Assembly (NCBI GenBank): GCA_020722185.1
Contig: DYLH01000005.1
Span: 269 to 64,268, forward strand
Direction of reading: 5' to 3'
DNA length: 64,000 bases
DNA from: Candidatus Avelusimicrobium gallicola
GTDB lineage: Bacteria; Elusimicrobiota; Elusimicrobia; Elusimicrobiales; UBA9959
Of this stretch, positions 24,485-53,678 are shown piece by piece. Made by a program: the position numbers and the translations under genes. Below the pieces are notes generated by a model, which worked only from the letters and a program-made list of their open reading frames with translations, did no database searches and was not told the origin of the DNA. Position 1 is the stretch's first letter. The number at the start of each line of letters is the position of its first letter.

Positions 24485-24550
24485 AGCGCTTAAGCGCTAA
24501 AAACAAACCACTAAAAAATCTTAGAACTTACGAACTAATATAGTTTTTCA
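24485..24550 (+). repeat. Perfect 14-nt palindrome AGCGCTTAAGCGCT followed by intergenic repeat copy C
   Basis: Palindrome at 24485-24498. TTAGAACTTACGAACTAATATAGTTTTTCA at 24521-24550. Related AGCGCTTAA word at 52849-52857. Confidence 0.6.
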
Positions 24551-24594
24551 TGCGGCCATAAATAGACATTCTAGCAAAAGTAAAAGAATATATA

Positions 24595-32937: not shown

Positions 32938-32974
32938 TTAATTACTCTCTCAAATACATATTTCTGGCATACTA

Positions 32975-34615: not shown

Positions 34616-34620
34616 AGTTT

Positions 34621-35241
34621 TTATTTTACTTTTTCAGCTATTATATGAAAGCTCCAATATATATCTGCCTCTTTTGATGAAAATATAATCTTACAGCCGC
34701 AGGAAGAAATAAAACTTTCAAGAATTTCAGATTCAGGAATCCATTTATGCTGCATCCCCACCCATGGAGCAAGAGGTCTCCACAATAGCATAGATTTGTG
34801 CGGAGCATATATAAAAAGAATCCCACCTTGCCTCAACTTTCTTATCCATAGAGACAAGGCATCCCGCCACCTTTCTAGATGTTCTATACAGTGTGAACTA
34901 AACACATAATCAAGAGAATTATCTTTAAAGATATTAAGTTTATAAGCATTCACATCTTTTTCATCCCTTACTGGAAAAGCTGATTTAAGTGGCCATTGTC
35001 CCGCGCCGACATCTATGCCTCGCCCATGGCAATATTTCAAGGCCTCTATTTTTATAAATGAAACCGCATTTCCTTTATTTAAGTATTCTGGATAGAAATA
35101 CCCTTTGTATGTATAATATAATCTCCCATTTATAGTTATTTGATTTAAAAAGAGTTTATTAAGCCTAATAATAGTTTTGTATAGGAAAATTTTGGGATTG
35201 GTAAAAAGGAGAAAAAATTTTTCAAGTATATTTTTTATCAT
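34621..35241 (-). CDS. SAM-dependent methyltransferase (Methyltransf_11-like)
   Basis: GIDVGAGQWP and LDYVFSSHCIEHL motifs; 206 aa. Confidence 0.6.
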   Translation of the reverse strand: MIKNILEKFFLLFTNPKIFLYKTIIRLNKLFLNQITINGRLYYTYKGYFYPEYLNKGNAVSFIKIEALKYCHGRGIDVGAGQWPLKSAFPVRDEKDVNAYKLNIFKDNSLDYVFSSHCIEHLERWRDALSLWIRKLRQGGILFIYAPHKSMLLWRPLAPWVGMQHKWIPESEILESFISSCGCKIIFSSKEADIYWSFHIIAEKVK

Positions 35242-36796
35242 AGCAAAAAACTCTCATCAGTCTAATGACAAGTATTTTATTTTTTTCAAAAAATCTCTTA
35301 TCAATCAAATCAAATGGTTTTAGCAAATAAATAATAGACAGATACACGAACAGATAAAGAGCAAACAATTCTGACAATATTAATACTAATTCAAACTTAG
35401 TATACGAATATTTAAAATGAGAAGCCGCCAGATATGTAAAGATAAAAGCTATAAATCCCGACAGAAAAAAAGATAATATCTTTTTGAAAAACAATTTATT
35501 GTCCAATTTAATCAAAGGATGAAGCATGTTCATAAAATATAAAACTGCTACAGTCATTGGGATAGCTGTGCCGACGGCCGCGCCAGAAAAACCAAAAAGA
35601 TATATAAAGAAAAAGCTCAAAAAAATATTCAAAATCATATTCAAAACAGCGCCTTTCATTTGCAAATCAGGCCTGCCTATGCCCTGTGAAACTGCCCCGC
35701 TGACAGCGCCGAATACAGTATTAAACATATATCCCCATCCCATTATAGTAACAATCCTAACAGATTCAGGATAGTTTGAACCAAGCCAAAATTTTATAAT
35801 CAGAGATGGAGAGGCTGAGACAAAACCAAGTAATAAAACTGTTATAAAAGCAAGATATTTAACAGATCTGAAATAGATTTCGCTTAATTCGGTGTGCTTT
35901 TCCACCGCTTTAAGTCTTGAAAACACCGGGAAAAGAGCTCCCACTATTAAAGTTGGGATATTTCTTGTCTGTTCACATAGAGAATTTCCTATTTGATAAA
36001 AACCCACATATGAAAGTCCGACAAGACGCGTTATTATTATTTTTTCAAGATGAGAGGCGATAATTGAAGAAAGCCTTGTAATCTGCAATTTCCCCCCATA
36101 ACTAAATATCAAATAAAAAATCTCTCTATCAAAATAGAAAATTCTTATTTTAAGATACGGCAAAAGTTTAAAAGATATATAGAGATAAATTAATCCACTC
36201 AAAATCACAATCAAAAGACTGTTTAGCATAAGGCCATATAAACCAAAGCCTCTATCTAGAAAAAAAATAGATCCAAACAAATTAAGAATAGAGAAAAGAA
36301 TGGACAATGATGACACTAAATCAAAACGCTCTATAGCTGGAATAATAGCTTGAAAGGGAGAAAACAAACCAGAAAAAGAAAGTATAGATCCATAAATCAT
36401 AAGAATTAAAAAAGCTTCTTTTTTGAAATTGTCAGGTAATTTCAAAAAATCGATAATATGCTCTCCTCCAAAGAAAAAAAGAGAAAATATTAAAACACCA
36501 AAGAGAAAATAAAATGAGATTCCACATCCAATAATCTTGTTTATCTTTTCATTTTGGTTTAAAGCTTTATATTCAGAAATATATTTAACAAAAGAAGTCC
36601 CGACTCCAAGGTCTAAAAGAGAAAAATATCCTCCAGCAGCAGTTATTAGAGCATAAATTCCATATTTTTCAATGCCAATTTTCTTTATTATGTAGTAAGT
36701 CAAAAAAAGTCCGACTAGAGAAGAGAATAATTTTCCGCCAGCATTCCACATTGTATTTCTAAATATGGATGGCCTTGTATATTCAATTTCTCCCAT
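35222..36796 (-). CDS. wzx: Oligosaccharide-unit flippase (Wzx, MOP superfamily)
   Basis: 524 aa, ~14 hydrophobic helices. The N-terminal NTMWNAGGKLFSSLVGLFLTYYIIKKIG pattern is typical of polysaccharide flippases. Confidence 0.7.
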   Translation of the reverse strand: MGEIEYTRPSIFRNTMWNAGGKLFSSLVGLFLTYYIIKKIGIEKYGIYALITAAGGYFSLLDLGVGTSFVKYISEYKALNQNEKINKIIGCGISFYFLFGVLIFSLFFFGGEHIIDFLKLPDNFKKEAFLILMIYGSILSFSGLFSPFQAIIPAIERFDLVSSLSILFSILNLFGSIFFLDRGFGLYGLMLNSLLIVILSGLIYLYISFKLLPYLKIRIFYFDREIFYLIFSYGGKLQITRLSSIIASHLEKIIITRLVGLSYVGFYQIGNSLCEQTRNIPTLIVGALFPVFSRLKAVEKHTELSEIYFRSVKYLAFITVLLLGFVSASPSLIIKFWLGSNYPESVRIVTIMGWGYMFNTVFGAVSGAVSQGIGRPDLQMKGAVLNMILNIFLSFFFIYLFGFSGAAVGTAIPMTVAVLYFMNMLHPLIKLDNKLFFKKILSFFLSGFIAFIFTYLAASHFKYSYTKFELVLILSELFALYLFVYLSIIYLLKPFDLIDKRFFEKNKILVIRLMRVFCYDKKYT

Positions 36797-38165
36797 CTTT
36801 ATTTACTCCCTCTATGCGTGAATAGGCAAGGCTGGCAAGAGCTGTAAGAAACCAAAAAGGCTCCATTATCCTGACTATTATGAAAGTATTTACACCCAAT
36901 CCCTGAACCAATAGCCCCGGCAAAGCGCATAAAAGCCCCAAACCTATCACTTTCTCAATTTCATTAGCAGAATTTTTATAGATAAAATAAAAAACTTTTA
37001 AAAGAGAGTACATTAACCATATAAAGCCAGCAAGACCTATCAATCCTATTTCTCCCATAACTAAGGCATACTGATTATCCCCAAGCCCTATTCCTGTAAC
37101 ACCCATACCAAGAGCTGGGTGTTTAGGTAAAACATTGTTTATTACATTTATCAAGGATTGATATCTAAGCCATGCAGATTCCTCAAGTTTTATCTCGCCA
37201 AAGGGCGTATTTACAGATTTTATAGCTTCATCCCCTGAGAAAGTGCTTTTTATCCTATTTTCCACTTTTTCACTGGTGCCAGGCAAAGTTAAAGCAAGAA
37301 TAAAGCCTAATAGTGCGGCTAAAATAAAAAAAATTCTTTTTTTACTCGATAAAAAAATGAATACAGTAAAAGAGACAATCAAACCTAGATAAGAAGCTCT
37401 GGAGAATGTCAAAAGGAAAGAGTTATACATTAAAATCATAGTGATAATAGACAACAAAAACATCCATCCAAAGTATTGCGATGACAAAGCTAAAAGAATG
37501 GAGTAAGCAATTATGTAATAACCACCCAGAGAGGCTGGTTCCGATTCTTCTGGCGAATCAAGGGGAGCCTCAAATGGAGCGCTTGCCCTTATATCCTGGC
37601 CAACTGCATTATAGTAATAGTAGTATGAGTACACTATGACTGCTATCAAGACTATCCATGCGTATTTCAAATATCTGGAAAAATCTTTTTCATCCTTCAA
37701 CACATTCAAAGTCATAAAATAAAGAATATAGTACTCTATGTATTTAAGCAGATAAAAAAATGCCTTCTTATACTCTATATTTCCTCTAAAAACGCCAAAG
37801 GATGTGGATATGATATACACTAAAGTATAAAACAAAAGAGGCTTCGTTATTGGGCTATATGCCAGTGACCCTTCTTTTTTAAAGATAGCCATCCTTGCAA
37901 GCCAGGCAAAAAATATCATTATTAAAAATACATCATCGTACCTTATAACCACATTTCTTCCAGGAACTCCACCCACAGCGATCTCAGGAGAGAGAAGCAT
38001 TGAAAAAACCAATAATATAAGGCTTGATTTTATGGAGAAAAAAGCGAAAAAAGCTGATATGACACCTATCAATCCCGCTAAAAGCAAATGCAAAGAAAAG
38101 TTGACTACAATCCATCCAGAAAAAACAGCTATAAGTACTAAAGCAATGATAATGATTATAGGCAT
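36783..38165 (-). CDS. O-antigen ligase/polymerase-like membrane protein (Wzy_C family)
   Basis: 460 aa, polytopic, with a large loop after TFSRASYLGLIVS (Wzy_C-like motif). Positioned between wzx and wzc. Confidence 0.6.
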   Translation of the reverse strand: MPIIIIIALVLIAVFSGWIVVNFSLHLLLAGLIGVISAFFAFFSIKSSLILLVFSMLLSPEIAVGGVPGRNVVIRYDDVFLIMIFFAWLARMAIFKKEGSLAYSPITKPLLFYTLVYIISTSFGVFRGNIEYKKAFFYLLKYIEYYILYFMTLNVLKDEKDFSRYLKYAWIVLIAVIVYSYYYYYNAVGQDIRASAPFEAPLDSPEESEPASLGGYYIIAYSILLALSSQYFGWMFLLSIITMILMYNSFLLTFSRASYLGLIVSFTVFIFLSSKKRIFFILAALLGFILALTLPGTSEKVENRIKSTFSGDEAIKSVNTPFGEIKLEESAWLRYQSLINVINNVLPKHPALGMGVTGIGLGDNQYALVMGEIGLIGLAGFIWLMYSLLKVFYFIYKNSANEIEKVIGLGLLCALPGLLVQGLGVNTFIIVRIMEPFWFLTALASLAYSRIEGVNKDGRN

Positions 38166-40037
38166 TTATCGCCCTGAATATCTGGAATAGTCGTAACTGT
38201 AATATCCATATTTTGGGCCCATTTCAGAAGCCCTCACGCCATTTAGCACAACTCCTATCATTTTTGCTTCAACACCGTTTATCTGATCTTTTGCTCTCTT
38301 CAGAGCTCCGCGAGCTATTTTACCAGCTTTATAAACGAGAACCGCTCCATCATTTTTTTTAGCAAGTATAACGGAATCTATAAAGAGAAGAACAGGAGGC
38401 GCATCAAAAACCACTATATCAAATTCAGATTTTGCAAAAGATATAAATTTCTCCCAGTCAGCATTGTCTAAGAGATCAACCACATTTGCTGGCGTTGTTC
38501 CACAGGAAATTATCTTAAGATTTTCTATACCCTGAAATCTTATCACCTGAGAGGAGTCAAGCCCTCCGGTAATAAAATCTGCGCTTTCTCTTAAAGTTTC
38601 TCTATAATCCACTTTCCCCACTAGGAGATCGCTTAATCCGGGCTGTTTTGGCAAACCGAATACCTGATGTATCACAGGCCTTCGCATATCAGCGTCTATA
38701 AGCAAAGTTTTAAGTCCAGAATGAGCGCTGGCCAGAGCGAAATTTATCGCCGTTAAAGTCTTTCCTTCCGCAGCTCCAGAAGAACTAATAACAACCGAAA
38801 CAGAGCCTTTTTGTGATATATTGGATATAATATTGGCGCGCAAGGTATGATAAGACTCTATGATGCTACTTGAATATTTTCTATTGAACAGCAAAACACT
38901 TCTAAATGCGTCTAGGCCAAAACGTTCTTTCCTGAATATTTCAGTGAGCATATTGTCTATTCTGTGTTCACTAGCTATGTTTGGTATTATTCCTAGCACC
39001 GGCAGATTTATAAAGTTCTCTATTTCCTCTATAGTGCTGATGGAAACATCTAAATTTTCAAGCAAGAAAACAAAAACCACAGATAAGAAAGCGCCAAGCA
39101 AAATTCCTACGGTTAAATTGAGCCTTTTATTTGGAGAGACAGGGACTGTATTGGGAAAAGACGGGTTTACCACGCTTACAAAGGATACAATAGAAGAAAG
39201 CCCAAGCTTAGCCTCCTCGTACTGCTTGCTTATCGTGGCATAAAGGTCTTCCTGAAGTCTTAGATCCCTTGTTATTCTGGCTAGGTCTAATTCCTGAGCC
39301 GGAATCTGAGATAATCTATTCTGCATATTCTCTATTCTTTTTTCTATAGAGTTTATTTCGGGATGGTTTGGGGTATATTTTTCCAGAAGTTCTTTTCTTT
39401 TTATTTCAAGTTCGGCAAGCTGATCTGCATAATAACCACCTATGCCAGTTTTTGGATTTTTCTCTATAAAATTTTTCTTTCGTTTTTCCAGTTCCTTAAG
39501 TTTTTCCTCTATATCATTTTTTCTAGAAACAATATCTTCAAGGGTCTTTCTTGCCTGAGCGCTTTTCTGCTCTAAATCATATTCTCTATACGCATTAATA
39601 ACAGCGTTGATTATATCATTGGCTTTGTAAGGATTGTCAGTTTTTGATGTTATTTTTATCAAGTTTGAATCCTGCACCCTTTCAGCATAATAAGACCCAA
39701 GAACCTCACTGGCCGACAATCTTATTGAAGAATTACTTTCTTGCATCTTGAGATTTATTATTCCAGCCGCTCGAGAAGCTATTTCCATTGAGCCTATAAC
39801 TCTTATCTCAGTTGAAACAGCTCCCCAAGGATCAATTGAAGATATATCTGATCCAGGAAGTTTTGAATAGATATTGGGCGGTTGAGTGTTTATAATGGCA
39901 GAAGAGCTGTATATAGTAGGCTGAAATCTGGTGTATATAAGCGTTGAAACTATTGTAGATACAAAAACTAAAAGCGCAGTCCACTTTCTCCTGTTTATTA
40001 TTCGCCAGTAATCATGAAGTGTAAGTTCGGTATTCAT
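38166..40037 (-). CDS. wzc: Polysaccharide co-polymerase / BY-tyrosine kinase (Wzc-like, PCP-2a)
   Basis: N-terminal Wzz domain (TLHDYWRIINRRKW plus TM). Periplasmic coiled coil and a second TM. Walker A SSSGAAEGKT, Walker B IVVFDAPPV. Tyr-rich tail YGYYSYDYSRYSGR. Confidence 0.8.
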   Translation of the reverse strand: MNTELTLHDYWRIINRRKWTALLVFVSTIVSTLIYTRFQPTIYSSSAIINTQPPNIYSKLPGSDISSIDPWGAVSTEIRVIGSMEIASRAAGIINLKMQESNSSIRLSASEVLGSYYAERVQDSNLIKITSKTDNPYKANDIINAVINAYREYDLEQKSAQARKTLEDIVSRKNDIEEKLKELEKRKKNFIEKNPKTGIGGYYADQLAELEIKRKELLEKYTPNHPEINSIEKRIENMQNRLSQIPAQELDLARITRDLRLQEDLYATISKQYEEAKLGLSSIVSFVSVVNPSFPNTVPVSPNKRLNLTVGILLGAFLSVVFVFLLENLDVSISTIEEIENFINLPVLGIIPNIASEHRIDNMLTEIFRKERFGLDAFRSVLLFNRKYSSSIIESYHTLRANIISNISQKGSVSVVISSSGAAEGKTLTAINFALASAHSGLKTLLIDADMRRPVIHQVFGLPKQPGLSDLLVGKVDYRETLRESADFITGGLDSSQVIRFQGIENLKIISCGTTPANVVDLLDNADWEKFISFAKSEFDIVVFDAPPVLLFIDSVILAKKNDGAVLVYKAGKIARGALKRAKDQINGVEAKMIGVVLNGVRASEMGPKYGYYSYDYSRYSGR

Positions 40038-40038
40038 A

Positions 40039-40716
40039 CTACCTTCTAATCAACACAATTCCGAATGTAAAAAGCATAGTCCATGGCATAAGGTTATCCG
40101 TTATCCATTTCCCAGCTGAGGTGAATTTCTTTCTTGGGATGTAAACTATATCTCCAGGCGAAAGTTCTATGTTTTTCTCAGTATTACCCTTAAACAATTC
40201 ACTTAGATCAATCTCAAAAGAAGATTTAATTGTTTCTCCCTTTTCATTCTTCTTATTTCTAAAAATTCTAATATTCTCAGTATCGGGATAATCAGAAAAT
40301 CCTCTGGCGCTAGATATCAGATCAAGAATTCGCATTCCTTCGTAGTAGTCATAATATCCTCCCCATTGAACTTGACCTATAACACCTACTTTATAAGTGG
40401 AAAATTTTCTCACACTGACAGTTACTTTTGGTTCTGAAACATATTTTGAAAATTTAGATGTAAGAATTTTTTCAAGTTCAGAAGCCCTAATTCCAGAGAC
40501 CTTTATAGCGCCAAGTAATGGCAATTCTATACTGCCATCTGGTTGAACAGTAACCTCCTTGGAAAATTCATCAGCGGGATACACATTTATATCCACAATA
40601 TCTCCAGCTGAGATGAAATAATCTTTTTCACCTAAAGAGGGGATTTCAAATGAGTAAACTGGAAAACCTGACAAATTGATGGCAAAAGATATCAAAAAAG
40701 CAAACATTTTTCTCAT
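40039..40716 (-). CDS. wza: Outer-membrane polysaccharide export protein (Wza/OPX-like, short form)
   Basis: Signal peptide present. Poly_export motif ISAGDIVDINVY...VQPDGSIELPLLGAIKVSG. SLBB-like LSPGDIVYIP. C-terminal hydrophobic helix. Confidence 0.75.
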   Translation of the reverse strand: MRKMFAFLISFAINLSGFPVYSFEIPSLGEKDYFISAGDIVDINVYPADEFSKEVTVQPDGSIELPLLGAIKVSGIRASELEKILTSKFSKYVSEPKVTVSVRKFSTYKVGVIGQVQWGGYYDYYEGMRILDLISSARGFSDYPDTENIRIFRNKKNEKGETIKSSFEIDLSELFKGNTEKNIELSPGDIVYIPRKKFTSAGKWITDNLMPWTMLFTFGIVLIRR

Positions 40717-40748: not shown

Positions 40749-41309
40749 TTATATACTTTTACCAGCGGCTCTGGAAAGAGTTTTTACTATTGCTTTAAGC
40801 TCCGCAACCTTATCTTCAAGCTCTTTTATTTTTCTATCATCAAAAGAAACTGAAGAATTAGAAAATGTTGAAACCTTCCTTTCAAGCTCAGAAATCTTGT
40901 ATATCAAATCATCATTTCTGCGCTGAGCATAAGAAGCAAATACTATATAACGAAAAAATGCCATAAATGACACTAGAGAAAAAAGCATAAAAGAAACTCC
41001 ACCAACCATGCTTATATACTCTCTATCCGAAAAAATTCCTATCAAAAGAACTATTATCGATGCAAGCATTCCAAAAAGCAGGGCTTCTTTATTTTCACTC
41101 CAAAGAATATTGAATTTAGGATTTATTGGACGATCAGATAATGGTCGCTGATGAGAAGGCAGCGGAATATTTTGCGGCATTTGAATATTCCCTCTAACCG
41201 CAAGAGAATGTGGCTGAGATGGTTTTTCTATATCTTCCTCTGTGTGATAAAAAGACGTTTCAACCTTTAACTTTTCAAGCATTGATCTTAGATCTTCATT
41301 TTTTTTCAT
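40749..41309 (-). CDS. Hypothetical membrane anchor: P/Q-rich N-terminus, two TM helices, C-terminal coiled coil
   Basis: Hydrophobic helices LLFGMLASIIVLLIGIF and VGGVSFMLFSLVSFMAFFRYIVF, then ISELERKV...KELEDKVAELKAIVKTL. No recognisable family. Confidence 0.5.
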   Translation of the reverse strand: MKKNEDLRSMLEKLKVETSFYHTEEDIEKPSQPHSLAVRGNIQMPQNIPLPSHQRPLSDRPINPKFNILWSENKEALLFGMLASIIVLLIGIFSDREYISMVGGVSFMLFSLVSFMAFFRYIVFASYAQRRNDDLIYKISELERKVSTFSNSSVSFDDRKIKELEDKVAELKAIVKTLSRAAGKSI

Positions 41310-42030
41310 CTTTATTCTCCGACATTTTTGAAAATGAGTATTTTCTCTCCCAGTCGGCTATCTTTTCTTGTTTTCTTATGATTTCTTTTTCTCTATTTTC
41401 TAAATCTAACCTTACCTTTTCAAAAGTTCTTATCAAGTCCTTTTTCTTATTTATAAAATCTTCACTAAGAATTTTCTCTTTTGTTTTTAATTCTGCCATC
41501 TTTCTTGAATAATCTTTTTCCATAGCCAAATGCCTGTTTTCCAACTCTCTGTTTTTCTCTTCCCATTTTTTCAACATAGCATCTTCTTTAATCCTGATTT
41601 CCTCGTAGAGTGACTGCGCCCTAGAAGAATATTCCATTGTCAATTTGGTCTTCTCCAGAGCCACTTCAGCCTTTATTTCTGCCTTTTCTGCCTCAAGCTT
41701 TTTTACAGCCTCTTTTAAATCCCTCAATTCATCATAAGTTTTTACATTTTCCTCAGATAGTTTGTTGTTTATTTCTTTAAGTTTTAATAGTTTCAATTCA
41801 AACTCGGATTCTATTTCCTTTTTTTCTTCTTTAAGGGCTTCCAATCTTTTTTTGAAATCCTCTGTAGTTTTTCCAGCAAGATCCTCATAGGAAATAATTT
41901 CATCTTCAAATTCTTCAAGTATGGTAGACAACTCCACAGAAGAAGGATTTTTATACTGCCAGAGTTTTTCAGCAAATTCTTTAAGTCTTGCTAAAAAGGA
42001 TGAGGGGACGCATTTAAGTTCTTTTTTCAT
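41296..42030 (-). CDS. Hypothetical coiled-coil protein (244 aa)
   Basis: E/K-rich heptad-like sequence after a ~60-aa N-terminal region. 2 nt downstream of the giant gene; 14-nt overlap with the next gene. Confidence 0.5.
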   Translation of the reverse strand: MKKELKCVPSSFLARLKEFAEKLWQYKNPSSVELSTILEEFEDEIISYEDLAGKTTEDFKKRLEALKEEKKEIESEFELKLLKLKEINNKLSEENVKTYDELRDLKEAVKKLEAEKAEIKAEVALEKTKLTMEYSSRAQSLYEEIRIKEDAMLKKWEEKNRELENRHLAMEKDYSRKMAELKTKEKILSEDFINKKKDLIRTFEKVRLDLENREKEIIRKQEKIADWERKYSFSKMSENKDEKK

Positions 42031-42032: not shown

Positions 42033-45000
42033 TTACCTGGCCTTATTTTTATATTCAGCAATAGTCCTTGTAAGTTCAAGACGCAAATTCTCTATTTCAG
42101 ACTGACGCTTGGCATATTCTCTTTCAAGATCCAATCTTCTGGTCTCAAGCTCTCTTTCTCTCTTTTCAAACTCTTCAGCTTTCCTTGCGTTTTCCTTATC
42201 AATCTCAGTTAATTTTTCTTGAAGTTTTACTTCCATTTCATTCAAGCGAGACTGCTTCAATGAAAGCATAGAGTCTTTTGCCGACATATTCTTTTCCATT
42301 TCTTCAATGGTCTGCTGCATCTGTGCTACCCTCTTATTGTACAATTCTTTAAGGGAGTTATTTTCCTGGATAAACTTTTCTTCCATAGCAGCCTGCTCTG
42401 CTCTGTAAGAGGCGAGAGTTTCTGAAAATCTCTTTTCCTCTTGCGCCAAATGTTGCGCAAGCATAGAAGAATAGTTGTCTCTGTATTTAGATATTTCCTC
42501 TTTAAGTTTTTCCATTTTCTCTTCAGCTTCTTTCATAGCAGCATCCTTTTCAGCTAAAACACTAAGCATTCTTTCCTTATCTGCTTTGTAACTTTCTCTC
42601 ATCTTTTCTATTTCATACACGCTTCTTTCATTAAGCTCTACTAATTCTCTTTGGGTGATATCCAACTTTTCTTCAAGCATAGCAGTCGCTCTTGAAACGG
42701 CTTCTGCCAATCTTTTATTAAAATCCTTTGACATTGAATCTACAATTTGAGCTTTTTCCTGAGAGAATTCTTTCGCCATTTCAACAGCTTCCTGTGTCAG
42801 TTGAGATTCTCTTTCTTTTGATTGTATCAATTCGGCGCTTAAAGCCGATATTCTCTCTTTTAGAGAAGACGATTCCTTTCTTAAAGAATCTTCTTTCATA
42901 CTAAATTCTGATTTTATATCTTCTATCTGAGACTTCATAGAATTTTCCAAATCAGCTTTGGCTTTTTTATACTTTTCTGCATATATCTCAGCTTGTTTTC
43001 GAGAAACTTCATTTTGGAAAGATTCCATTTTTTCATCCATTTCCCTTTGAAAAGCAGAAAGTCTCTCAGAAAGAGATTTTATTTCTTCATCTTTTGAATT
43101 AAGTATTCTGAAACTCTGGCTCAATTCCTCCTCATAGGCTAGGATCTTATTATTAAGAGATTCAGTTTCTGCTTTGACCTGTTTTTCTATCCTTTGAGAA
43201 AATTCCGACTCCATTTCAGCTTTCTGCTGAGCAAGAAGTCTTCTTGAATTTATTTCCAGATCCGCAAGTTTGCTGGATAAATCTTTGTTCTCTTCAATAG
43301 CGCTGGCTAGTTTTTCTTTTACTTGACCTAATTCAAAAACAGCCGCATCTGCTATTTTTTCAAGATGCTCTTTTTCTTTACCCCAATTAATTCTTTCCTT
43401 ATCATACACTTCCTTATGCATTTCAAGATTTTGCTGATATTCCTGCTCATATTGTTTTTTTATATCTTCAATTTTAGACTTCGATTCTTCTCTAATCTCT
43501 CTTATAGAAACTTCATTTTCCTGTTTGTATTTTTCAGAAATTTTCCTTAATCTGAAATCAAAATCTTTTTCCCTTGACAAAATTTCACTGCGAAGCCTTT
43601 CTATTTCTTCATTTAGGCTATTTGTTTCTTTAACCCTGAGAACTCTCTCTTTTTCCTTTTCAGATTTAAGCTCATCCATCTCTTTTTTCATCTGAGAATA
43701 AAAAAGATTCTTTTCTTCCTGAATTTCTTTTTTTCTATTTTCAAATTCAAGAGATATTAGCCTTATTTTTTCAGCATAATCTTGAGACAATGAATTTCTT
43801 AAAGAATTTTCACTCTCTCTATGTTTTACTTCAAGAGATTCAATAGCCTCACGGAACTCAATATCTTTATCTGTAAGTTTTTTCTCATAGTCTTTTATAA
43901 TATCCTCATATTTTTTTTCTATTTGAGCTTTTTCCTCTTCAAGAGATAAAGCTCTGGCCTGATATTCCTGCTCCCTTTGAGAAATTTGTTGTCTGAGATG
44001 ATCCGATATTGCGGCTTTTTCTTGTGAAAATTTCACAAACAAATCTGATATCTTGCTCTCATATTCAGAAACCATTTTTTCATACTTATCTTTTTCTTCT
44101 TTGAGAGCCACTTCATCTTTTTGTTTAAGTTCAGAAATCAATTTTTCATATTCAGATTTGAGTTTCTCGGAATTCTTCTCAAAATCTTTCGTAAGAGAAA
44201 GGATTATTTCCTCTTTATCTTTTAAGAGAGCTGATAGAGTAGCATCTTTTTGCGCTATCTCATTATCAAAAGATTTTGAAATTTCTTTTCTTTTAGTTCT
44301 TTCATTTTCAAGCAAAATCATCATTTCATTTTCATACTTTGACTTTGCTTCTTCATAAGTGGCTTTTAAATTAGCTACCTTTTCCTCAAAACGTTTTCTC
44401 AAATTCTCCATTTCTTTATTGTGCCTTTCTTCTATTTCTTTTTCACGCTCATTAAAATTTGCCATTAGTTGATTTTTTAATTCTTCTTTTTCCGCTGAGA
44501 CTAATTTAAGCTTTTCATTTATTTTGTTTAACTTTTCCTCGTAATCTGCCTCAATAGCAGTTTTCTCTTCTTCATATTTCATCAAAATATCGTCTTTCTC
44601 AGCAGAAGCTTTTAGCAAAACATCTCCCATAGCTTGCCAAAAAGATTGTCTCATTTCTTCTTTTTGTTGAGAAATTTTTTCAATTTCTTTTTCCCATTTA
44701 AGAGCGCTTTCCTGATTTTCTTTTCTAAGGTTTATGATGGCTTCATCTTTTTCTTTACTAATACTTGATATCTTAGACTCATAAAAAGATATCCTCTCGC
44801 TGATTTTATCTTCTAAAGATTTTTTCTCTATTTCCATTTGATTTTTTAAGTTCTCAATGGAATTTTTCAAATCGGTTCTCTCTTTGTCAAATTCTGACTC
44901 TTTTATGGATAAAGTCTCCTGCCATTGACTATTTGTCTTTTCAATCTTTTCTCTAAGCTCTTTTTCTTTTTTATTAAGCAATTCTTCAAGCTCTTTTATC

Positions 45001-48000
45001 TTTTCACTTCTTGCCACCAGCTCCCCGGAATATTTCTTTTCGTATTCACTTCTAAGGCTTAGATTCTCACCTATAAACCTCTCTTCCATCTCTTTCTTCT
45101 CAGCTTCAAAGCGAGATTTTATCTCTTTTATCTTATCGCTATTTACCGCCTCTTTTTGCTCAAGTTCTAAAATTAATTGCTTTTCCCTCTTCTCATATTC
45201 AGCTTTTATATCTTGTATCTGACTCGCAAATTCGCTTCTGGCCTTCTCTAGTTCTAGCGAATATTCCTTCTCTTTCTTAGCTATATCTTCAGACAGCTTT
45301 CTTACTTCAACCTCTTTGCCTAAAATAGCATTCTCATAATCCGCCTTAATCAATGAAAAAGAATTCTTAAGCTCTTCATTCGCTGACAAAAGCTCACTCT
45401 CCCTATGTGAAAACTCTTTCCTTAAATCCCCTAAGGCTTTTTCACGCTCGGCTATAAAGCGGCTCTCTGTCCTAGAAAGAAGTTCTTGCATCTCTCCAAT
45501 CCTTTTTTGCGCATTCTCTATCCTTGCAATATATGTCGCGGCTATTGAAGCTTTTTCTTCTTCGTTTTCACTTCTCACCGCGGACAGCTGTTCAAGATAA
45601 TAATCCTCTTTGGCTTTAAGCGCTGACTCCATATCTTCTCGATACTTCTGCGATAACTCATTCTTCTCTTTGATCAGCTCATTCTTTAATTCCTCTATCT
45701 TGTCTTCATATTCTTTATTTAATAAACCTATCTTCTCAATAAGAGAATTTTTCTCTGTTTCTATCTTCTCTTTATTTTCCTCTATCTTTTTTAACTTTAT
45801 CTCAAAATTCTTCTCTTTTTCCTCAAGCGCCTGGGACATCTTCTGCTCAAATTCTGACTCTTTTATGGATAAAGTCTCCTGCCATTGACTATTTGTCTTT
45901 TCAATCTTTTCTCTAAGCTCTTTTTCTTTTTTATTAAGCAATTCTTCAAGCTCTTTTATCTTTTCACTTCTTGCCACCAGCTCCCCGGAATATTTCTTTT
46001 CGTATTCACTTCTAAGGCTTAGATTCTCACCTATAAACCTCTCTTCCATCTCTTTCTTCTCAGCTTCAAAGCGAGATTTTATCTCTTTTATCTTATCGCT
46101 ATTTACCGCCTCTTTTTGCTCAAGTTCTAAAATTAATTGCTTTTCCCTCTTCTCATATTCAGCTTTTATATCTTGTATCTGACTCGCAAATTCGCTTCTG
46201 GCCTTCTCTAGTTCTAGCGAATATTCCTTCTCTTTCTTAGCTATATCTTCAGACAGCTTTCTTACTTCAACCTCTTTGCCTAAAATAGCATTCTCATAAT
46301 CCGCCTTAATCAATGAAAAAGAATTCTTAAGCTCTTCATTCGCTGACAAAAGCTCACTCTCCCTATGTGAAAACTCTTTCCTTAAATCCCCTAAGGCTTT
46401 TTCACGCTCGGCTATAAAGCGGCTCTCTGTCCTAGAAAGAAGTTCTTGCATCTCTCCAATCCTTTTTTGCGCATTCTCTATCCTTGCAATATATGTCGCG
46501 GCTATTGAAGCTTTTTCTTCTTCGTTTTCACTTCTCACCGCGGACAGCTGTTCAAGATAATAATCCTCTTTGGCTTTAAGCGCTGACTCCATATCTTCTC
46601 GATACTTCTGCGATAACTCATTCTTCTCTTTGATCAGCTCATTCTTTAATTCCTCTATCTTGTCTTCATATTCTTTATTTAATAAACCTATCTTCTCAAT
46701 AAGAGAATTTTTCTCTGTTTCTATCTTCTCTTTATTTTCCTCTATCTTTTTTAACTTTATCTCAAAATTCTTCTCTTTTTCCTCAAGCGCCTGGGACATC
46801 TTCTGCTCAAATTCTGACTCTTTTATGCGCAGTCTTTCATTTAACTCAAATATCTCATTTTGTTTAGCTAAAATCTCTTCCTCAAATTTTTTTGAAAGAT
46901 TTTCAATCCTTTGCTGATATGACTTTTCGCTCTCTACACGCATATCTTCCATAGCTTTTTGAGAAGATTCAATGCTTTTCTGATATTCCTTAAGCAATCT
47001 TTCTTTTTCCTGAGCATACTTCATTTCTATTTCATGAAGAGTCTCTCTGAGTTTTTCATTTTCTTGATTGAGTCTGCTTCTTTCTGCCTCAAAGGCACTT
47101 TTGTCGCTTATAAATTTTTGCTCTGTTTCACTGATTTTTAATATCAGCTCCTCGTCAAATCTTTTTTTGATTTCTATTATCTTATTTTCAAGATTTTTTA
47201 TCTGTTCTTGAGCCTGCCAGTATTTTTCAGCCATTTCTTTTGCGCTTTCTTCAAGTCTTGCTCTCTCTTTATCCCATGCCATATGCAAAGACTTTATTTC
47301 TTTTTTTCTCTCTTCCTCTATAGACATAAGCCTATTGTTCATATTAAAAGCAAGACTCTCTTTATACTTCTCATAAGCCTGAGAGACTTCTTCTTTTTTT
47401 GCTATGTACTCAGCTTCCAAAGCCGCCTGTCTATTTTTTATCCATTCTTCTTTCTCTTTTGCAGAATTTTCCAGAAAATTTACTCTCTCCATAAGCTCTT
47501 TTTCTCTATCTGAGTATGAAGCCTGAAGAGATGAAATTCTCTTATCATAGGATCTCTGAAGCTCAATATTCAGCTCATCATATTTTTTCTGAGCTTCTGC
47601 AAGTTTTTGTGAGTACTGGCTTTCAGTTTCAAGCAGACGCCTATTCCAGTTTTCAACCATATTTTTTTGAGATTTATCCAGCTCTTCAAATTTTTTCTGA
47701 TAGTCATTCTCAAGCTCGCGTCTGAGTATATCTATTCTGGCCTCTTTTTCAATAAGTTGTCTCACATCCAGTTTGCCCTCTCCAAGCAACTGCATTGTGG
47801 CTTCAAGTTTCCTGTAAAATTCTTCCTTATCTTCAACAGTTTTTATCCTTGCGGAAAATGAATCGCGGATATTTTCAAGTTTTGCGGATAACTCTTTATT
47901 TGAATTTTCAGCTATTTCAAGATTTTTTCTCAATTCAGAGCCTTCTTTTTCCATTCCTGAAATCTTTTCCAAAGCCCAACGCAAGGTCATTTTTGCTGTA

Positions 48001-48053
48001 TCGAGACTTGAAACCTCGCTTATGAGATTCTCTATTTCATTCTTTTCTTTCAT
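42033..48053 (-). CDS. Giant coiled-coil protein (2006 aa), no enzymatic or membrane motif recognised
   Basis: One uninterrupted ORF. E/K/L/I/S-dominated heptad-like sequence end to end. No signal peptide, TM helix or Walker A. GGAG 8 nt upstream of the ATG. Contains a 320-aa exact internal duplication. Confidence 0.7.
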   Translation of the reverse strand: MKEKNEIENLISEVSSLDTAKMTLRWALEKISGMEKEGSELRKNLEIAENSNKELSAKLENIRDSFSARIKTVEDKEEFYRKLEATMQLLGEGKLDVRQLIEKEARIDILRRELENDYQKKFEELDKSQKNMVENWNRRLLETESQYSQKLAEAQKKYDELNIELQRSYDKRISSLQASYSDREKELMERVNFLENSAKEKEEWIKNRQAALEAEYIAKKEEVSQAYEKYKESLAFNMNNRLMSIEEERKKEIKSLHMAWDKERARLEESAKEMAEKYWQAQEQIKNLENKIIEIKKRFDEELILKISETEQKFISDKSAFEAERSRLNQENEKLRETLHEIEMKYAQEKERLLKEYQKSIESSQKAMEDMRVESEKSYQQRIENLSKKFEEEILAKQNEIFELNERLRIKESEFEQKMSQALEEKEKNFEIKLKKIEENKEKIETEKNSLIEKIGLLNKEYEDKIEELKNELIKEKNELSQKYREDMESALKAKEDYYLEQLSAVRSENEEEKASIAATYIARIENAQKRIGEMQELLSRTESRFIAEREKALGDLRKEFSHRESELLSANEELKNSFSLIKADYENAILGKEVEVRKLSEDIAKKEKEYSLELEKARSEFASQIQDIKAEYEKREKQLILELEQKEAVNSDKIKEIKSRFEAEKKEMEERFIGENLSLRSEYEKKYSGELVARSEKIKELEELLNKKEKELREKIEKTNSQWQETLSIKESEFEQKMSQALEEKEKNFEIKLKKIEENKEKIETEKNSLIEKIGLLNKEYEDKIEELKNELIKEKNELSQKYREDMESALKAKEDYYLEQLSAVRSENEEEKASIAATYIARIENAQKRIGEMQELLSRTESRFIAEREKALGDLRKEFSHRESELLSANEELKNSFSLIKADYENAILGKEVEVRKLSEDIAKKEKEYSLELEKARSEFASQIQDIKAEYEKREKQLILELEQKEAVNSDKIKEIKSRFEAEKKEMEERFIGENLSLRSEYEKKYSGELVARSEKIKELEELLNKKEKELREKIEKTNSQWQETLSIKESEFDKERTDLKNSIENLKNQMEIEKKSLEDKISERISFYESKISSISKEKDEAIINLRKENQESALKWEKEIEKISQQKEEMRQSFWQAMGDVLLKASAEKDDILMKYEEEKTAIEADYEEKLNKINEKLKLVSAEKEELKNQLMANFNEREKEIEERHNKEMENLRKRFEEKVANLKATYEEAKSKYENEMMILLENERTKRKEISKSFDNEIAQKDATLSALLKDKEEIILSLTKDFEKNSEKLKSEYEKLISELKQKDEVALKEEKDKYEKMVSEYESKISDLFVKFSQEKAAISDHLRQQISQREQEYQARALSLEEEKAQIEKKYEDIIKDYEKKLTDKDIEFREAIESLEVKHRESENSLRNSLSQDYAEKIRLISLEFENRKKEIQEEKNLFYSQMKKEMDELKSEKEKERVLRVKETNSLNEEIERLRSEILSREKDFDFRLRKISEKYKQENEVSIREIREESKSKIEDIKKQYEQEYQQNLEMHKEVYDKERINWGKEKEHLEKIADAAVFELGQVKEKLASAIEENKDLSSKLADLEINSRRLLAQQKAEMESEFSQRIEKQVKAETESLNNKILAYEEELSQSFRILNSKDEEIKSLSERLSAFQREMDEKMESFQNEVSRKQAEIYAEKYKKAKADLENSMKSQIEDIKSEFSMKEDSLRKESSSLKERISALSAELIQSKERESQLTQEAVEMAKEFSQEKAQIVDSMSKDFNKRLAEAVSRATAMLEEKLDITQRELVELNERSVYEIEKMRESYKADKERMLSVLAEKDAAMKEAEEKMEKLKEEISKYRDNYSSMLAQHLAQEEKRFSETLASYRAEQAAMEEKFIQENNSLKELYNKRVAQMQQTIEEMEKNMSAKDSMLSLKQSRLNEMEVKLQEKLTEIDKENARKAEEFEKRERELETRRLDLEREYAKRQSEIENLRLELTRTIAEYKNKAR
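44887..46827. repeat. Perfect tandem duplication, 960-bp unit, 2.02 copies, in frame
   Basis: Line-by-line comparison shows every base from 44887-45867 is identical to 45847-46827 (offset 960). The 21-nt TCAAATTCTGACTCTTTTATG occurs at 44887, 45847 and 46807. Confidence 0.95.
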
Positions 48054-48184
48054 AATTTTCTCCGCTTGAAAATATTTCCGCTTTTATTTTCACAATCTTA
48101 TTATAACAGGCCGGTAGTTTTATTTATGTTACATTTTTGTAAAATTTATATTTAGGTAGAACGGTTTTAGTAAAAACTGGCAAT
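48054..48184. promoter_or_regulatory. Divergent promoter region (giant-gene operon versus 138-aa gene)
   Basis: 131-nt AT-rich spacer between divergent starts. On the minus strand a perfect TATAAT lies at 48100-48105, ~45 nt upstream of the giant-gene ATG, with a weak -35. Not validated. Confidence 0.3.
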
Positions 48185-48601
48185 ATGAAGAAGAAAATAC
48201 TTGTATTTCTTGCGATTATAATAATTACAGTTTGTTTCTATAATATGTCTTTCCTTATGTCAAGAATAGTTTCGATTAATCTGGAAGTAAGCATTTCCCC
48301 AGAAATAGCTTCTAAGTATTTTTCTCAAAACAATATGCTGCTCATTATGATAAAAAACTCCAAAGGAGCTCCACTTGGAGTAAAAAAAATAATAGATCCG
48401 ATATACCCCCTCAGAACAAGGATAACAAGCGAAGACATACTCTTAAAGGATCTAATAACTCCCAAACTTGAACTATCTGCTGAAATGAATTCTCACGGTT
48501 TGGCTGGAGAGAGAAAAAAAGGCGATTTTTTTTCCTCTAAAAATGAAAAGACTTTCATAATTTCAACCAACAAAACTATTCAGCTAGACTCTCTCGAGTA
48601 G
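48185..48601 (+). CDS. Hypothetical N-terminally anchored protein
   Basis: N-terminal hydrophobic helix KILVFLAIIIITVCFY. No secure family assignment. Confidence 0.4.
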   Translation: MKKKILVFLAIIIITVCFYNMSFLMSRIVSINLEVSISPEIASKYFSQNNMLLIMIKNSKGAPLGVKKIIDPIYPLRTRITSEDILLKDLITPKLELSAEMNSHGLAGERKKGDFFSSKNEKTFIISTNKTIQLDSLE

Positions 48602-50467: not shown

Positions 50468-51418
50468 TTAGTTGAAAAGCTCGCTTATAGATTCTCTCAA
50501 ATGGTTTCTTCTAATAGCTTCTGCTAAAATACCGGAAACCGATACACTCCTTATTTTAGCACTTTTTGAGGCATCAATTCCAATGGTATCTGTCAAAACC
50601 AACTCTTCTATAGGCGATTTATCTATTTTTTCAATGGCATTTAAAGAGAGAACACCATGAGTGCAGCAAGCTATTATCTTGGACGCTCCCCGCTCCTTTA
50701 TAGTCTTGGCGACCTCAGTTAATGTGCCGGCAGTATCCACAAGATCATCAAATATAATGCAATTCATCCCCTCTACGCTACCTATGACATTGAATACTTC
50801 CGCTTGATTTGGCTTTGGTCTTCTTTTGTCTATTATCACCAATCCCAAATCAAGCCTCTTGGCAAAAGACCTTGATCTTTCCACACTCCCCACATCTGGG
50901 GATACAACAACCATATTTTCCAGATTTTTATTTCTTATGTAATCAAGTATCACCGGCCTTGCATAAAGATGGTCGAGAGGTATATCAAAAAATCCCTGTA
51001 TCTGAGGCGCATGAAGATCTATCGTTATCACTCTGTCAGCCCCAGCTTCAGTTATTAGATTGGCCACAAGTTTTGCTGTTATGGCCACTCTTGGCGCAGG
51101 TTTTCTATCAGCTCTGGCATAGCCGTAATAAGGGATAACCGCAGTTATTCTACCCGCCGATGCCCGTCTAAGAGCATCCATCATTATCAATAGTTCCATC
51201 AAATTTTCATTTACTGGATTGCATGTGGATTGTACTATATAACAATCCTCGCCCCTTACATTTTCAAGTATATGAACATCTATTTCCCCATCTGCAAAGC
51301 GCGAAACCTTAGAACTGCTAAGCGGTATGCCAAGATGCTCGCATATCCTAGTCGCCAACTGTGGATTTGAATTACCACAAAAAACTCTCATAGAACCGCT
51401 TTTCCAGTATTCTTTCAC
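50468..51418 (-). CDS. prs: Ribose-phosphate pyrophosphokinase
   Basis: DLHAPQIQGFFDIPLDHL and the PRPP loop IIFDDLVDTAGT. GTG start gives a GTGA overlap with glmU. Alternative ATG at 51391 (MRVFCGNSNP). Confidence 0.9.
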   Translation of the reverse strand: MKEYWKSGSMRVFCGNSNPQLATRICEHLGIPLSSSKVSRFADGEIDVHILENVRGEDCYIVQSTCNPVNENLMELLIMMDALRRASAGRITAVIPYYGYARADRKPAPRVAITAKLVANLITEAGADRVITIDLHAPQIQGFFDIPLDHLYARPVILDYIRNKNLENMVVVSPDVGSVERSRSFAKRLDLGLVIIDKRRPKPNQAEVFNVIGSVEGMNCIIFDDLVDTAGTLTEVAKTIKERGASKIIACCTHGVLSLNAIEKIDKSPIEELVLTDTIGIDASKSAKIRSVSVSGILAEAIRRNHLRESISELFN

Positions 51419-52803
51419 TTTTTCCTCCTATACTTTATAACCTGTCTTGCCCTGGCAAGCGCTAGAGAACCTTCAGGCACATCCTCAGTTATGGTGGAAC
51501 CTGCGCCTATAAGAGCCCTTTTACCAACCTTAACTGGAGCAACCAGATTTGTGTTTGAACCAATAAAAGCTTCATCATCAATGTAAGTTTTATTCTTTTT
51601 TACTCCGTCATAATTGCATGTTATAGTGCCGGCACCTATATTGACTTTTTCACCCATATAGGTGTCTCCAATATAGCTTAAATGAGGCACTTTTGAACCT
51701 TTGCCTATGAAAGACTTTTTCACTTCTGAAAAATTGCCAACTTTTGCCCTTTGACTTAAAACTGTCTCCGGTCTCAAATGAGAAAATGGCCCAATATTCA
51801 CATTTTCGCCCGCCTTGCTTGAATAAAGACAGGAAAAAGGTTTTATCTCGCTTCCTGAATCTATTTCGCAATCTTCTATGACACAATACGGTCCTATTAC
51901 GCAAGATTTGCCAATTTTGGTTTCACCTCTTATGACAACGCCAGGATATATTGTGGTATCCTTGCCTATCTTTGACTCCATGGAAATATAAATATTTTCT
52001 GGATCCACTATATTGACGCCTTCTTCATAGAGTTGTTCAATCTTTCTCTTAACAGAACGCATATATAAATCGGAAAGCTCTTTTTTTGAATTTACTCCAG
52101 TTATCTGAATTTCATCCTTTATCCTATAAAGCTCTGTTTTACCTCTGTTTGAGTATATGTAAGAGATACAATCTGTCAGATAATATTCTTTTTTTGGCCC
52201 TTGTGGTTTAAGAGAAGAAAGAGCTTTTTTAAGAATTTTTGTTCTAAAAATATAAATGCCAGAGTTTATTTCCTTTATCAAAAGCTGATCAGAATCTGCG
52301 TCCGAAGCCTCAACTATCGCCTTAAAATTACTCTTGTCGTCCCTTATTATACGGCCATAAGTTTTGGCATCTTCCACATGACAGCTGAGGACAATACAAT
52401 CGCATCTTGTTCGGAAAAACTTATCTGACATTTTATTAAGAGTTGATTCTTTTATAAGTGGCACATCCCCTGAGAGTATCATAACAGAATCTGAAACTGA
52501 AACACTTTCCAGAGATTCAAGAACAGCCCTTCCACTACCTTTCAAAAGTTTCTGTCTGACAAAAACAACCTCAGTAGCTGTATTAATGTTTTGGAGCCAT
52601 TTTAAAACAAAAGACTCCACATCATCCGCTTTGTGACCAACAACTACTATCGCTTTATCTGGATTTAGAGATAAAGCTGTCTTTAAAACCCGTATTATCA
52701 AAGGAACCCCATCAAATTTGTGAAGCACTTTTGGATAATCTGATTTCATCCTGGTGCCAAGACCGGCGGCAAGCACTATTACAGAAAGTTTATTATTGGA
52801 CAT
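51415..52803 (-). CDS. glmU: Bifunctional UDP-N-acetylglucosamine pyrophosphorylase / GlcN-1-P acetyltransferase
   Basis: VIVLAAGLGTRMKSDYPKVLH. C-terminal left-handed beta-helix hexapeptide repeats. 462 aa. Confidence 0.9.
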   Translation of the reverse strand: MSNNKLSVIVLAAGLGTRMKSDYPKVLHKFDGVPLIIRVLKTALSLNPDKAIVVVGHKADDVESFVLKWLQNINTATEVVFVRQKLLKGSGRAVLESLESVSVSDSVMILSGDVPLIKESTLNKMSDKFFRTRCDCIVLSCHVEDAKTYGRIIRDDKSNFKAIVEASDADSDQLLIKEINSGIYIFRTKILKKALSSLKPQGPKKEYYLTDCISYIYSNRGKTELYRIKDEIQITGVNSKKELSDLYMRSVKRKIEQLYEEGVNIVDPENIYISMESKIGKDTTIYPGVVIRGETKIGKSCVIGPYCVIEDCEIDSGSEIKPFSCLYSSKAGENVNIGPFSHLRPETVLSQRAKVGNFSEVKKSFIGKGSKVPHLSYIGDTYMGEKVNIGAGTITCNYDGVKKNKTYIDDEAFIGSNTNLVAPVKVGKRALIGAGSTITEDVPEGSLALARARQVIKYRRKK

Positions 52804-52898
52804 AATTAGATTTTACAAAATTTTAATCTTTTCTCACTTTGGCTCTTTAGCGCTTAAACTTCGCAATTTCCTCTTTAAGATTTTTTGACACTTTTTCT

Positions 52899-53678
52899 TT
52901 ATGATATTCCTATGGCCACCAGAAGAGCGCTTACGAAGTAGTCTATGGTAAGTATAAGAACCATTGAAGAAACCACTGACTCGGTAGTGGCTTTTCCCAC
53001 CCCCTGAGCTCCCCCCTCAGCGTAAAGACCCTTATAGCATGACACTGTGGCTATTGTCAAAGCGAAGAAAAAGCTTTTTATAAAACCATGCATAAAATTC
53101 TTTATTTCCATGTAGTTCAAGATATCGTCGAAATAAATGCTTGATGCAACTGAAAGCTTTACTGAACTGACTATGAAACCGCCAGCTATTCCAATAAAGT
53201 CGCTAAATACTGTAAGCACTGGAAGAGCTATAAAAAAAGCGAAATATCTTGGAATTATGAGGTATGAGGATGGATTTGTACCAAGCGTATATAAGGCATC
53301 TATTTGTTCAGTCACACGCATAGTCCCTATTTCAGCAGTGACAGCTGCGCCAGCCCTGCCTGCAACAACTATGGCTGTCAAAACAGGACCTAACTCTTTA
53401 ACAAGGGCAAACCCTACCACACTGCCAACATAAAGGGGCTCGTTAAAAAGAGATTTTGAGGTGTAGCCACTTTGAAGAGCAAGCACCATCCCGGCAAATA
53501 GACTGGTTAAAGAGGTTACGCTCAAAGACTGCACGCCTATTCTAACTGTCTGTTTTATTATTTCCTTTTTTTCCAGTGGGGAATAAAACATCCATAAAAA
53601 AGCGAACTTAGCCATATAATAAGTTTGGCCAAGTTTTCTTGAAAGCTCAATTAAATTTCTTCCTATAAAGTAAAACAT
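52899..53678 (-). CDS. mlaE: MlaE-family ABC transporter permease
   Basis: 259 aa. Typical MlaE/YrbE helices and ELGPVLTAIVVAGRAGAAVTAEIGTMRVTEQIDAL motif. Confidence 0.8.
   Translation of the reverse strand: MFYFIGRNLIELSRKLGQTYYMAKFAFLWMFYSPLEKKEIIKQTVRIGVQSLSVTSLTSLFAGMVLALQSGYTSKSLFNEPLYVGSVVGFALVKELGPVLTAIVVAGRAGAAVTAEIGTMRVTEQIDALYTLGTNPSSYLIIPRYFAFFIALPVLTVFSDFIGIAGGFIVSSVKLSVASSIYFDDILNYMEIKNFMHGFIKSFFFALTIATVSCYKGLYAEGGAQGVGKATTESVVSSMVLILTIDYFVSALLVAIGIS

Follow-up and report, generated by a model that had tools for sequence, protein, structure and literature searches.

The window analysed here, a stretch of 64,000 nucleotides (nt) from contig DYLH01000005.1 (assembly GCA_020722185.1) of Candidatus Avelusimicrobium gallicola, a member of the Elusimicrobiota, contains on its reverse strand a giant gene (42033..48053) whose translation in the list of open reading frames (ORFs) is a helical rod protein of 2006 amino acids (aa), for which we deduce a progenitor of 1686 aa. 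Its coding sequence harbours a tandem duplication: the segments 44887-45867 and 45847-46827, 981 nt each, gave 0 mismatches in a direct comparison within the window, so that the perfect identity claimed in an earlier note on this DNA stands. The match breaks off immediately at both sides, with 0 nt of extension to the left or right, and a blastn comparison of the gene with itself recovered the same 981-nt pair at 100 % identity. An exact repeat of this length cannot be chance. We consider it likely that this in-frame tandem duplication in the rod of the giant protein is genuine and specific to its lineage.

The two copies lie head-to-tail in the same orientation and without a spacer. Read in the direction of the gene, the first copy of the repeat unit (45847..46806, reverse strand) encodes aa 410-729 and is identical to 44887-45846, which as the second copy (44887..45846, reverse strand) encodes aa 730-1049 and is identical to 45847-46806. 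Both ends and the junction carry the 21-mer TCAAATTCTGACTCTTTTATG, which encodes IKESEF (at aa 410, 730 and 1050) and has exactly three occurrences in the window, at 44887, 45847 and 46807, the very places named previously. The promoter-proximal boundary (46807..46827, reverse strand; aa 410-415) was delimited by sequence comparison. At the junction (45847..45867, reverse strand), where unit end, 21-mer and unit start follow each other, the context is matched by a metagenomic contig termed L004, and a second contig, L005, reads through the distal boundary (44887..44907, reverse strand; aa 1050-1055), beyond which unique sequence begins. The period of 960 nt equals 320 codons and thereby preserves the reading frame, as the earlier note had stated and as the 2006-aa ORF confirms. 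Tandem Repeats Finder reported no repeat; since its longest period is 500, it is blind to one of 960 nt, and its silence is no evidence against it.

The protein affected by this duplication contains 0 proline and 0 cysteine, 20 % Glu and 14 % Lys. Its hydrophobic spectrum displays a single sharp peak at 3.632 residues (power 100.5 vs a shuffle maximum of 9.8), whereas the power at the heptad period of 3.5 residues is 0.5, and its aromatic residues are spaced chiefly by 11, 22, 29, 18 and 7 positions. Between aa ~100 and ~1930, i.e., over ~1830 residues, the local hydrophobic phase drifts by no more than about ±60°, which corresponds to an uninterrupted seam of roughly 500 turns. This region is one helix with a phase-coherent hydrophobic period of 3.63 residues, and the rod is not a canonical heptad coiled coil; the designation "coiled coil" in the canonical sense, as used in the earlier note, had to be abandoned given the period of 3.63 and the missing signal at 3.5. 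To our knowledge, the rod ranks among the longest uninterrupted phase-coherent non-heptad helices. It is preceded by a conserved N-terminal head (aa 1-96; 47766..48053, reverse strand), a single helix followed by a break at LLGEGKLD, as defined by AlphaFold2 and alignment motifs. AlphaFold2, run on aa 1-409 with an alignment of 18 sequences, predicted helices at 4-91 and 97-408 separated by a break at residues 92-96, within this conserved motif, with a mean predicted local distance difference test (pLDDT) value of 81. The head features invariant TLRWALE and EATM..LLGEG motifs, and the hydrophobic phase before ~aa 100 differs from that of the rod. By inspection, neither the N-terminus (MKEKNEIENLISEV...) nor the C-terminus (...AEYKNKAR) has a hydrophobic segment, a signal peptide or a sorting signal. 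Searches with the 2006-aa protein found no Pfam family at E up to 0.01 and no match above threshold among PDB sequences, and NCBIfam yielded only noise from SMC arms (23.7 bits vs a cut-off of 567).

At the period of 3.632 residues, the 320 aa gained by duplication amount to 88.1 turns. At aa 730 the phase track continues unbroken; the offset of the second copy is about 38°, which lies within the natural drift, and the spectral power increases from 100 in the single-copy form to 127 in the duplicated form. When unit lengths of 300-340 aa with the same start were compared, 320 was a local optimum. The event thus preserves the hydrophobic seam, with weak statistics if it is taken alone. Computed at 0.15 nm per residue, the helix gains ~48 nm, from ~238 to 286 nm.

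Removal of one unit gives a single-copy gene of 5061 nt and 1686 aa, in which the 21-mer pair is the longest direct repeat, followed by one of 16 nt; a repeat as long as 21 nt appeared in 1 of 300 codon shuffles of this reconstructed gene. Scanning species genomes with the N-terminal alignment led to two orthologues, L018 and L019, with 66-68 % identity over the first 400 residues. The closest of them, L019 (1704 aa), aligns end-to-end with the 1686-aa reconstruction without any gap of at least 15 aa and with 740 identities, whereas against the 2006-aa form it shows a series of gaps of up to 112 aa. Thus, the single-copy architecture is probably ancestral, and the duplication would postdate the split from the lineages of L018 and L019. 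An ancestor of ~1686 aa with two 21-mers 960 bp apart had been postulated in the earlier note; the colinearity of L019 and the rank of the 21-mer pair speak in its favour. The DNA of L019 is too diverged to carry the 21-mers. A single-copy allele of the same species was not recovered in our scans, and protein-seeded scans of species genomes and of metagenomes from the Joint Genome Institute (JGI) returned no close relative. A KE..FE-type motif is kept in the orthologues at the first site and in L018 at the second site too, and the reconstruction contains K-E-x-[DE]-[FY]-[DE] at aa 411, 731 and 1174 and nowhere else. The microhomology therefore appears to consist of two instances of one structural motif, written in the same AT-rich codons.

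Judging from this anatomy, misalignment at the 21-nt repeats is the likeliest origin of the duplication. In the progenitor, two identical stretches encoding IKESEF, set 960 bp apart in motifs of the same helical phase, would have misaligned, so that the 960-bp segment became linked end to start with itself, be it by replication slippage, by template switching or by an unequal exchange between sister chromosomes at a homology near the minimum for recombination. Two head-to-tail copies and a third 21-mer would result, and from then on ordinary homologous unequal exchange could alter the copy number, as happened in two relatives described below (P0024 and P0025). As such, the duplication is an ordinary textbook event and no new mechanism is required.

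Related assemblies bear on the question of whether the duplication exists in real DNA: JGI metagenome 3300000227, "TB_AS07_7" (contigs L004 and L005, 99.8 % identical to the window), GCA_973314155.1 (L001 and L012, 99.9 %) and Logan SRR1559028 (L002 and L003, 99.98 %). SRR1559028 and sample AS07-7 were both obtained in one HiSeq 2000 study of biofilms from the sulfidic caves of Frasassi and Acquasanta Terme. For the JGI assembly, SOAPdenovo was run at k = 81-101, after which Newbler and minimus2 were applied with a minimum overlap of 80 nt (PMC4288042). L004, which matches the window at 99.8 % over 14.7 kb, passes from the upstream genes through the first unit copy and the junction 21-mer into 109 nt of the next copy, where the contig ends; over the final 200 nt it agrees with the window junction at every position but shows 67 mismatches to the single-copy model. 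L005 begins 126 nt before the unit end, crosses the distal 21-mer and enters the unique flank. With k of at least 81 or overlaps of at least 80 nt, a 21-nt repeat is unable to make a false join; therefore, junction-spanning reads exist, and the duplication junction is very probably real. Contigs L001, L012, L002 and L003 end before the repeat and are uninformative on copy number. A scan of metagenomes for the 21-mer gave a single match (L006), which is unrelated and due to chance, and an exact-protein look-up of the 2006-aa product gave none. In L005 itself (~620-690, window ~44393), one extra A after GAGAAAA splits the giant gene into products of 208 and 763 aa, being either a homopolymer error or a frameshift variant.

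The possibility of an assembly artefact, raised in the earlier note, would mean that each molecule carries one copy and that a loop in the assembly graph was walked twice owing to the repeated 21-mer. This would account for a repeat of exactly 21 nt, a common smallest k-mer size of assemblers, for copies that are perfectly identical, as expected from one path printed twice, and for the contig breaks that the other assemblies of this organism have within the giant gene or close to it; it is hardly reconcilable with L004, where an assembly at k = 81-101 places the unit start right after unit end and 21-mer. Moreover, assemblers usually collapse repeats instead of expanding them, and near-identical tandem copies, together with a pair differing by two versus three copies, are found in many family members from unrelated projects, so that we regard a pure artefact as highly improbable. 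We deem it unlikely as well, if to a far lesser degree, that the duplication is real and its printed structure simplified, with mixed copy numbers (1, 2, 3 or more) or a few differences between the copies flattened. A perfect 960-bp repeat is a strong substrate for RecA-dependent unequal exchange, and copy number does vary in the relatives P0024 and P0025. The first copy of the 21-mer appears in L004 as CTTAAAAG..., with A replaced by T at window 46826, so that the homology shrinks to 19 nt there, and the unit copy of L004 departs from the window at 46695, 46434, 46265 and 46054, with an N at 46788. However, four differences in 960 nt do not stand out clearly from the 0.18 % by which L004 and the window differ in general, and strain variation alone could be enough to explain them.

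Several of these observations nevertheless weigh against a duplication precisely as printed. L004 stops 3 nt short of the second-copy equivalent of 46695, and L005 starts about one 81-mer past the equivalent of 46054; the differences in the unit of L004 fit unresolved variation between copies or strains. Furthermore, the related assemblies all derive from one short-read study, and the junction has independent confirmation at the level of the assembler but not of the sample. No short read can bridge 960 bp, and the copies could exceed two, could differ from each other or could coexist with single-copy cells, whose allele contains no private k-mer and would show up only in depth data. If short reads underlie the window too, one graph path may have been printed twice, and both the identity of the copies and their number of exactly two could be by-products of assembly. 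Reading zero divergence as the mark of a very recent event, as the earlier note did, is thus unsafe, since the short reads of the related assemblies cannot phase 960-bp copies. Finally, 9 % of random duplications preserve the phase equally well, which corresponds to a single-event p of ~0.09. More generally, lengths and "perfect" repeats of such genes in metagenome-assembled genomes from short reads are partly decisions of the assembler and call for caution.

A genuine duplication in the giant gene falls into line with its relatives. A word-indexed search returned 33 family matches, a search among 1.84 billion proteins 69 representatives, and species genomes 100 relatives, of which 80 were kept; the titles of most of these name Elusimicrobia or Elusimicrobiota, those of a few just a "bacterium". 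This small family is confined to Elusimicrobiota, to which the window organism belongs as well: its DnaB is 80 % identical to a protein from a named genome of this phylum. All 33 homologues of the first search have a period of ~3.59-3.63 and 0-3 prolines. Conservation covers the N-terminal ~320-400 aa and the C-terminal ~450 aa, but not the middle. Complete reading frames mostly measure ~900-2950 aa, and those below ~900 aa were possibly truncated by frameshifts. For instance, a member of 2954 aa, longer than the window protein, is encoded from position 8001 onward of L045 (Elusimicrobia bacterium GWA2_56_46), and another of 2649 aa, from position 8001 onward of L069, has a period of 3.626 with a power of 166, the strongest seen. 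No literature on the family was found, and that on Elusimicrobia and coiled coils offered nothing relevant.

Internal repeats were identified by searching fragments against whole proteins, as a blastp self-search drops off-diagonal hits within the full-length self hit. By this means, most members turned out to have tandem internal duplications in the rod, with 13 distinct unit lengths (51, 62, 69, 78, 87, 116, 145, 210, 217, 225, 232, 276 and 320 aa) and copy identities from about 55 % to 100 % across the family; at the DNA level, tandem duplications of 66-99 % identity were present in many species genomes. Twelve of the 13 unit lengths deviate by at most 0.14 turn from whole turns, a closeness reached by none of 200,000 random draws, and many are multiples of 29 aa, equal to eight turns (87, 116, 145 and 232). 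Rod length in this family is very plastic and changes in whole-turn steps. This rule can be explained by selection against duplications that break the seam, or by a mechanical bias arising from homologies at motifs of the same phase. Two members from different metagenomes, P0024 (1524 aa) and P0025 (1756 aa), share an identical prefix of 961 aa and an identical suffix of 738 aa and differ by exactly one 232-aa unit; they are two- and three-copy alleles of one species, generated by exchange within an identical stretch of 175 aa. Population-level length variation, which the earlier note had suggested, is therefore seen in another species. The window event itself would represent the first step of this family-wide process, namely a duplication arising from unique sequence at a microhomology. 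In P0003, P0009, P0010, P0014 and others, a segment at aa ~240-340 resembles one located ~130-200 aa before the C-terminus (27-37 % identity); these segments may be matching rod-end motifs for head-to-tail or antiparallel assembly.

Features of the family are reminiscent of several known systems. The intermediate filament (IF)-like proteins Scy and FilP of Streptomyces are likewise very long bacterial cytoplasmic rods in which a non-heptad coiled coil is dominant. Their repeat, analysed by Walshaw et al. 2010, reportedly has 51 residues per 14 turns and thus a period of 3.64, which is close to the 3.63 of the giant protein, and units of 51 aa are duplicated in the family members P0001 and P0021. 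However, no sequence-family match connects both groups, which belong to different phyla. The rod of the giant family is also longer (up to 2954 aa) and without hinge or proline, and its gene lies ahead of wza/wzc/wzy-like genes. Scy combines a short N-terminal canonical domain with a non-canonical domain of 1226 aa (PMC3718342), and a passage of PMC6599971 cites Walshaw et al. 2010 on the Scy/FilP repeat. The IF-like trait of crescentin, FilP and Scy, a long helical rod, is present in the giant protein with a continuous seam over ~1830 residues and 0 prolines; its sequence matched none of the IF-like families searched (Pfam Filament, NCBIfam models). In SF-assemblin, four heptads and a skip residue make up a 29-residue repeat, equivalent to 29/8 = 3.625 residues per turn (PMC2119799). 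Family periods of 3.62-3.63 and units that are mostly multiples of 29 aa are akin to SF-assemblin and beta-giardin. In contrast to the giant protein, both of these are eukaryotic and possess a 253-residue rod and a proline-rich head; homology was not detected, and there was no match to Pfam SF-assemblin. Moreover, instead of a strict 29 the window protein exhibits a period of 3.632 with a mix of 29- and 40-residue spacings. The periodicity of the family seems to resemble that of SF-assemblin, with no homology between them detected.

With regard to length change, the streptococcal M protein and other repeat-bearing surface fibrils are known for size variation by intragenic recombination. As in the M protein, an in-frame tandem repeat in a helical rod shifts the length of the giant protein stepwise, and copy number varies among close strains (P0024/P0025). 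M proteins, however, are secreted, wall-anchored virulence proteins with short repeats under immune selection, whereas the giant protein has no signal peptide or anchor and a unit of 320 aa, and the window event is a first duplication at a 21-nt microhomology and not an exchange between existing repeats. A wall-anchored surface fibril was rejected as a candidate, the termini being devoid of a hydrophobic segment, signal peptide or sorting signal. A further parallel, in line with the idea of the earlier note, is offered by molecular rulers such as the phage tape measure protein or Lpp, which relates to periplasm width: they too are long helical proteins whose length would scale with any in-frame insertion or deletion. 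In contrast, the giant protein is not surrounded by phage genes, does not match tape measure families, is cytoplasmic by sequence and is linked to no measured dimension. We also discarded a phage tape measure protein as such, since the neighbours of the giant gene are pth, L25, prs, glmU and wza/wzc/wzy-like genes and no family matched, and an SMC/Rad50 protein, for which SMC_N, hinge and P-loop domains are absent and the N-terminus is purely helical.

The gene neighbourhood of the giant gene provides hints at its cellular context. Downstream, a gene for a 244-aa coiled-coil protein (41296..42030, reverse strand) starts 2 nt after the giant-gene stop and has syntenic counterparts of 232-267 aa in L007, L009 and L011. 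It is followed by the gene of a 186-aa protein (40749..41309, reverse strand; syntenic genes of 190-193 aa) with two hydrophobic segments and a C-terminal coiled coil, which make it a candidate membrane anchor. Directly downstream, 36783..40716 (reverse strand) encodes Wza-like (Poly_export/SLBB), Wzc-like (Wzz, GNVR and P-loop) and Wzy-like proteins, as assigned by Pfam. Upstream, the neighbours are pth, L25, prs and glmU. This order, i.e., glmU, prs, L25, pth, the giant gene, a ~240-aa coiled-coil gene, a ~190-aa gene combining membrane segments with coiled coil, and the Wza-, Wzc- and Wzy-like genes, is kept in three other species. The upstream intergenic region (48054..48184, reverse strand) has, as read from the sequence, a GGAG ribosome-binding site 8 nt before the ATG, and a scan of it for a consensus promoter and terminators found nothing above shuffle expectation. 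On its other side, a divergent ORF of 138 aa (48185-48601, forward strand) has an N-terminal hydrophobic segment and a weak Ig_CycH match; L007 and L011 contain a counterpart of 141 aa in this position that likewise matches Ig_CycH weakly.

Tentatively, and by analogy with the systems above, we picture the giant protein as a cytoplasmic, non-supercoiled coiled-coil rod or filament of two or more strands that might be tied to the inner membrane through the 244-aa and 186-aa proteins. In such an arrangement the central rod would set the length of the subunit, the conserved ends would mediate assembly, and the co-transcribed coiled-coil and membrane proteins would tether the rod to the inner membrane; its oligomeric state, the formation of filaments and the link to polysaccharide export are what we infer from these features. 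An amphipathic helix of the apolipoprotein type, binding lipids, is less likely, as strong hydrophobicity is confined to 27 % of the residues, which amounts to roughly one in each turn and is typical of coiled coils. That the rod acts as a ruler or spacer, in which a step of 48 nm was selected, strikes us as rather improbable. It would be in keeping with a rod length that varies about threefold among species at conserved ends, with units of whole turns and with the conserved synteny with genes for envelope polysaccharide export. However, whole-turn units are equally expected if purifying selection acts on foldability and not on length, microhomology at motifs of the same phase likewise introduces a bias toward whole turns, and a protein lacking a signal peptide, as found by inspection, cannot span the periplasm. 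We give a similarly small chance to the broader proposal that the family constitutes an undescribed, Elusimicrobiota-specific element of cell architecture, with one unbroken helix of ~1000-2900 residues and a period of ~29/8 forming straight rods without supercoiling, whose length is tuned in whole turns by tandem duplication and unequal exchange. If that were true, strains would differ in a physical spacing such as the striation of filaments, the width of the cell or the positions of the Wza-Wzc export machines encoded nearby, and the DNA analysed here would record, from a natural population, a length mutation of 48 nm at its first step. Compared with the duplication, the protein family is the more interesting object: the value of the former lies in providing an entry to an uncharacterised family whose evolution is dominated by seam-preserving tandem duplications. 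Its natural series of rod lengths, from ~900 to 2950 residues, together with alleles of two and three copies, could serve to test whether rod length sets a cellular dimension.

Beyond the giant gene, the Wza-, Wzc- and Wzy-like genes belong to a long polysaccharide cluster (22000-40716, reverse strand) that also comprises a flippase, methyltransferases, several glycosyltransferases and an asparagine synthase; gene calls for the Wzy-like protein differ, with 405 aa in L001 (GCA_973314155.1) vs 460 aa in the window. At 51415-53678 of the window, mlaE precedes glmU, prs, L25, pth and the giant gene, whereas mlaF, mlaD and radA come after mlaE in contigs L013-L017, which have a DnaB of 80-85 % identity; the gene order in the window is therefore rearranged. 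Because of this difference, a search for closer orthologues via the DnaB neighbours in L013-L017 reached none. Farther away, 5158-10149 (reverse strand) encodes an 892-aa protein in which a LuxC-type acyl-CoA reductase is fused to an AMP-binding domain resembling acyl-protein synthetase, followed by ORFs of 388 and 396 aa, which may form a fatty aldehyde or alcohol module. Finally, a 1149-aa protein encoded at 11087-14536 (reverse strand) unites an NHL or six-bladed beta-propeller with C-terminal TPR repeats and has relatives of at least 90 % identity in two other contigs.

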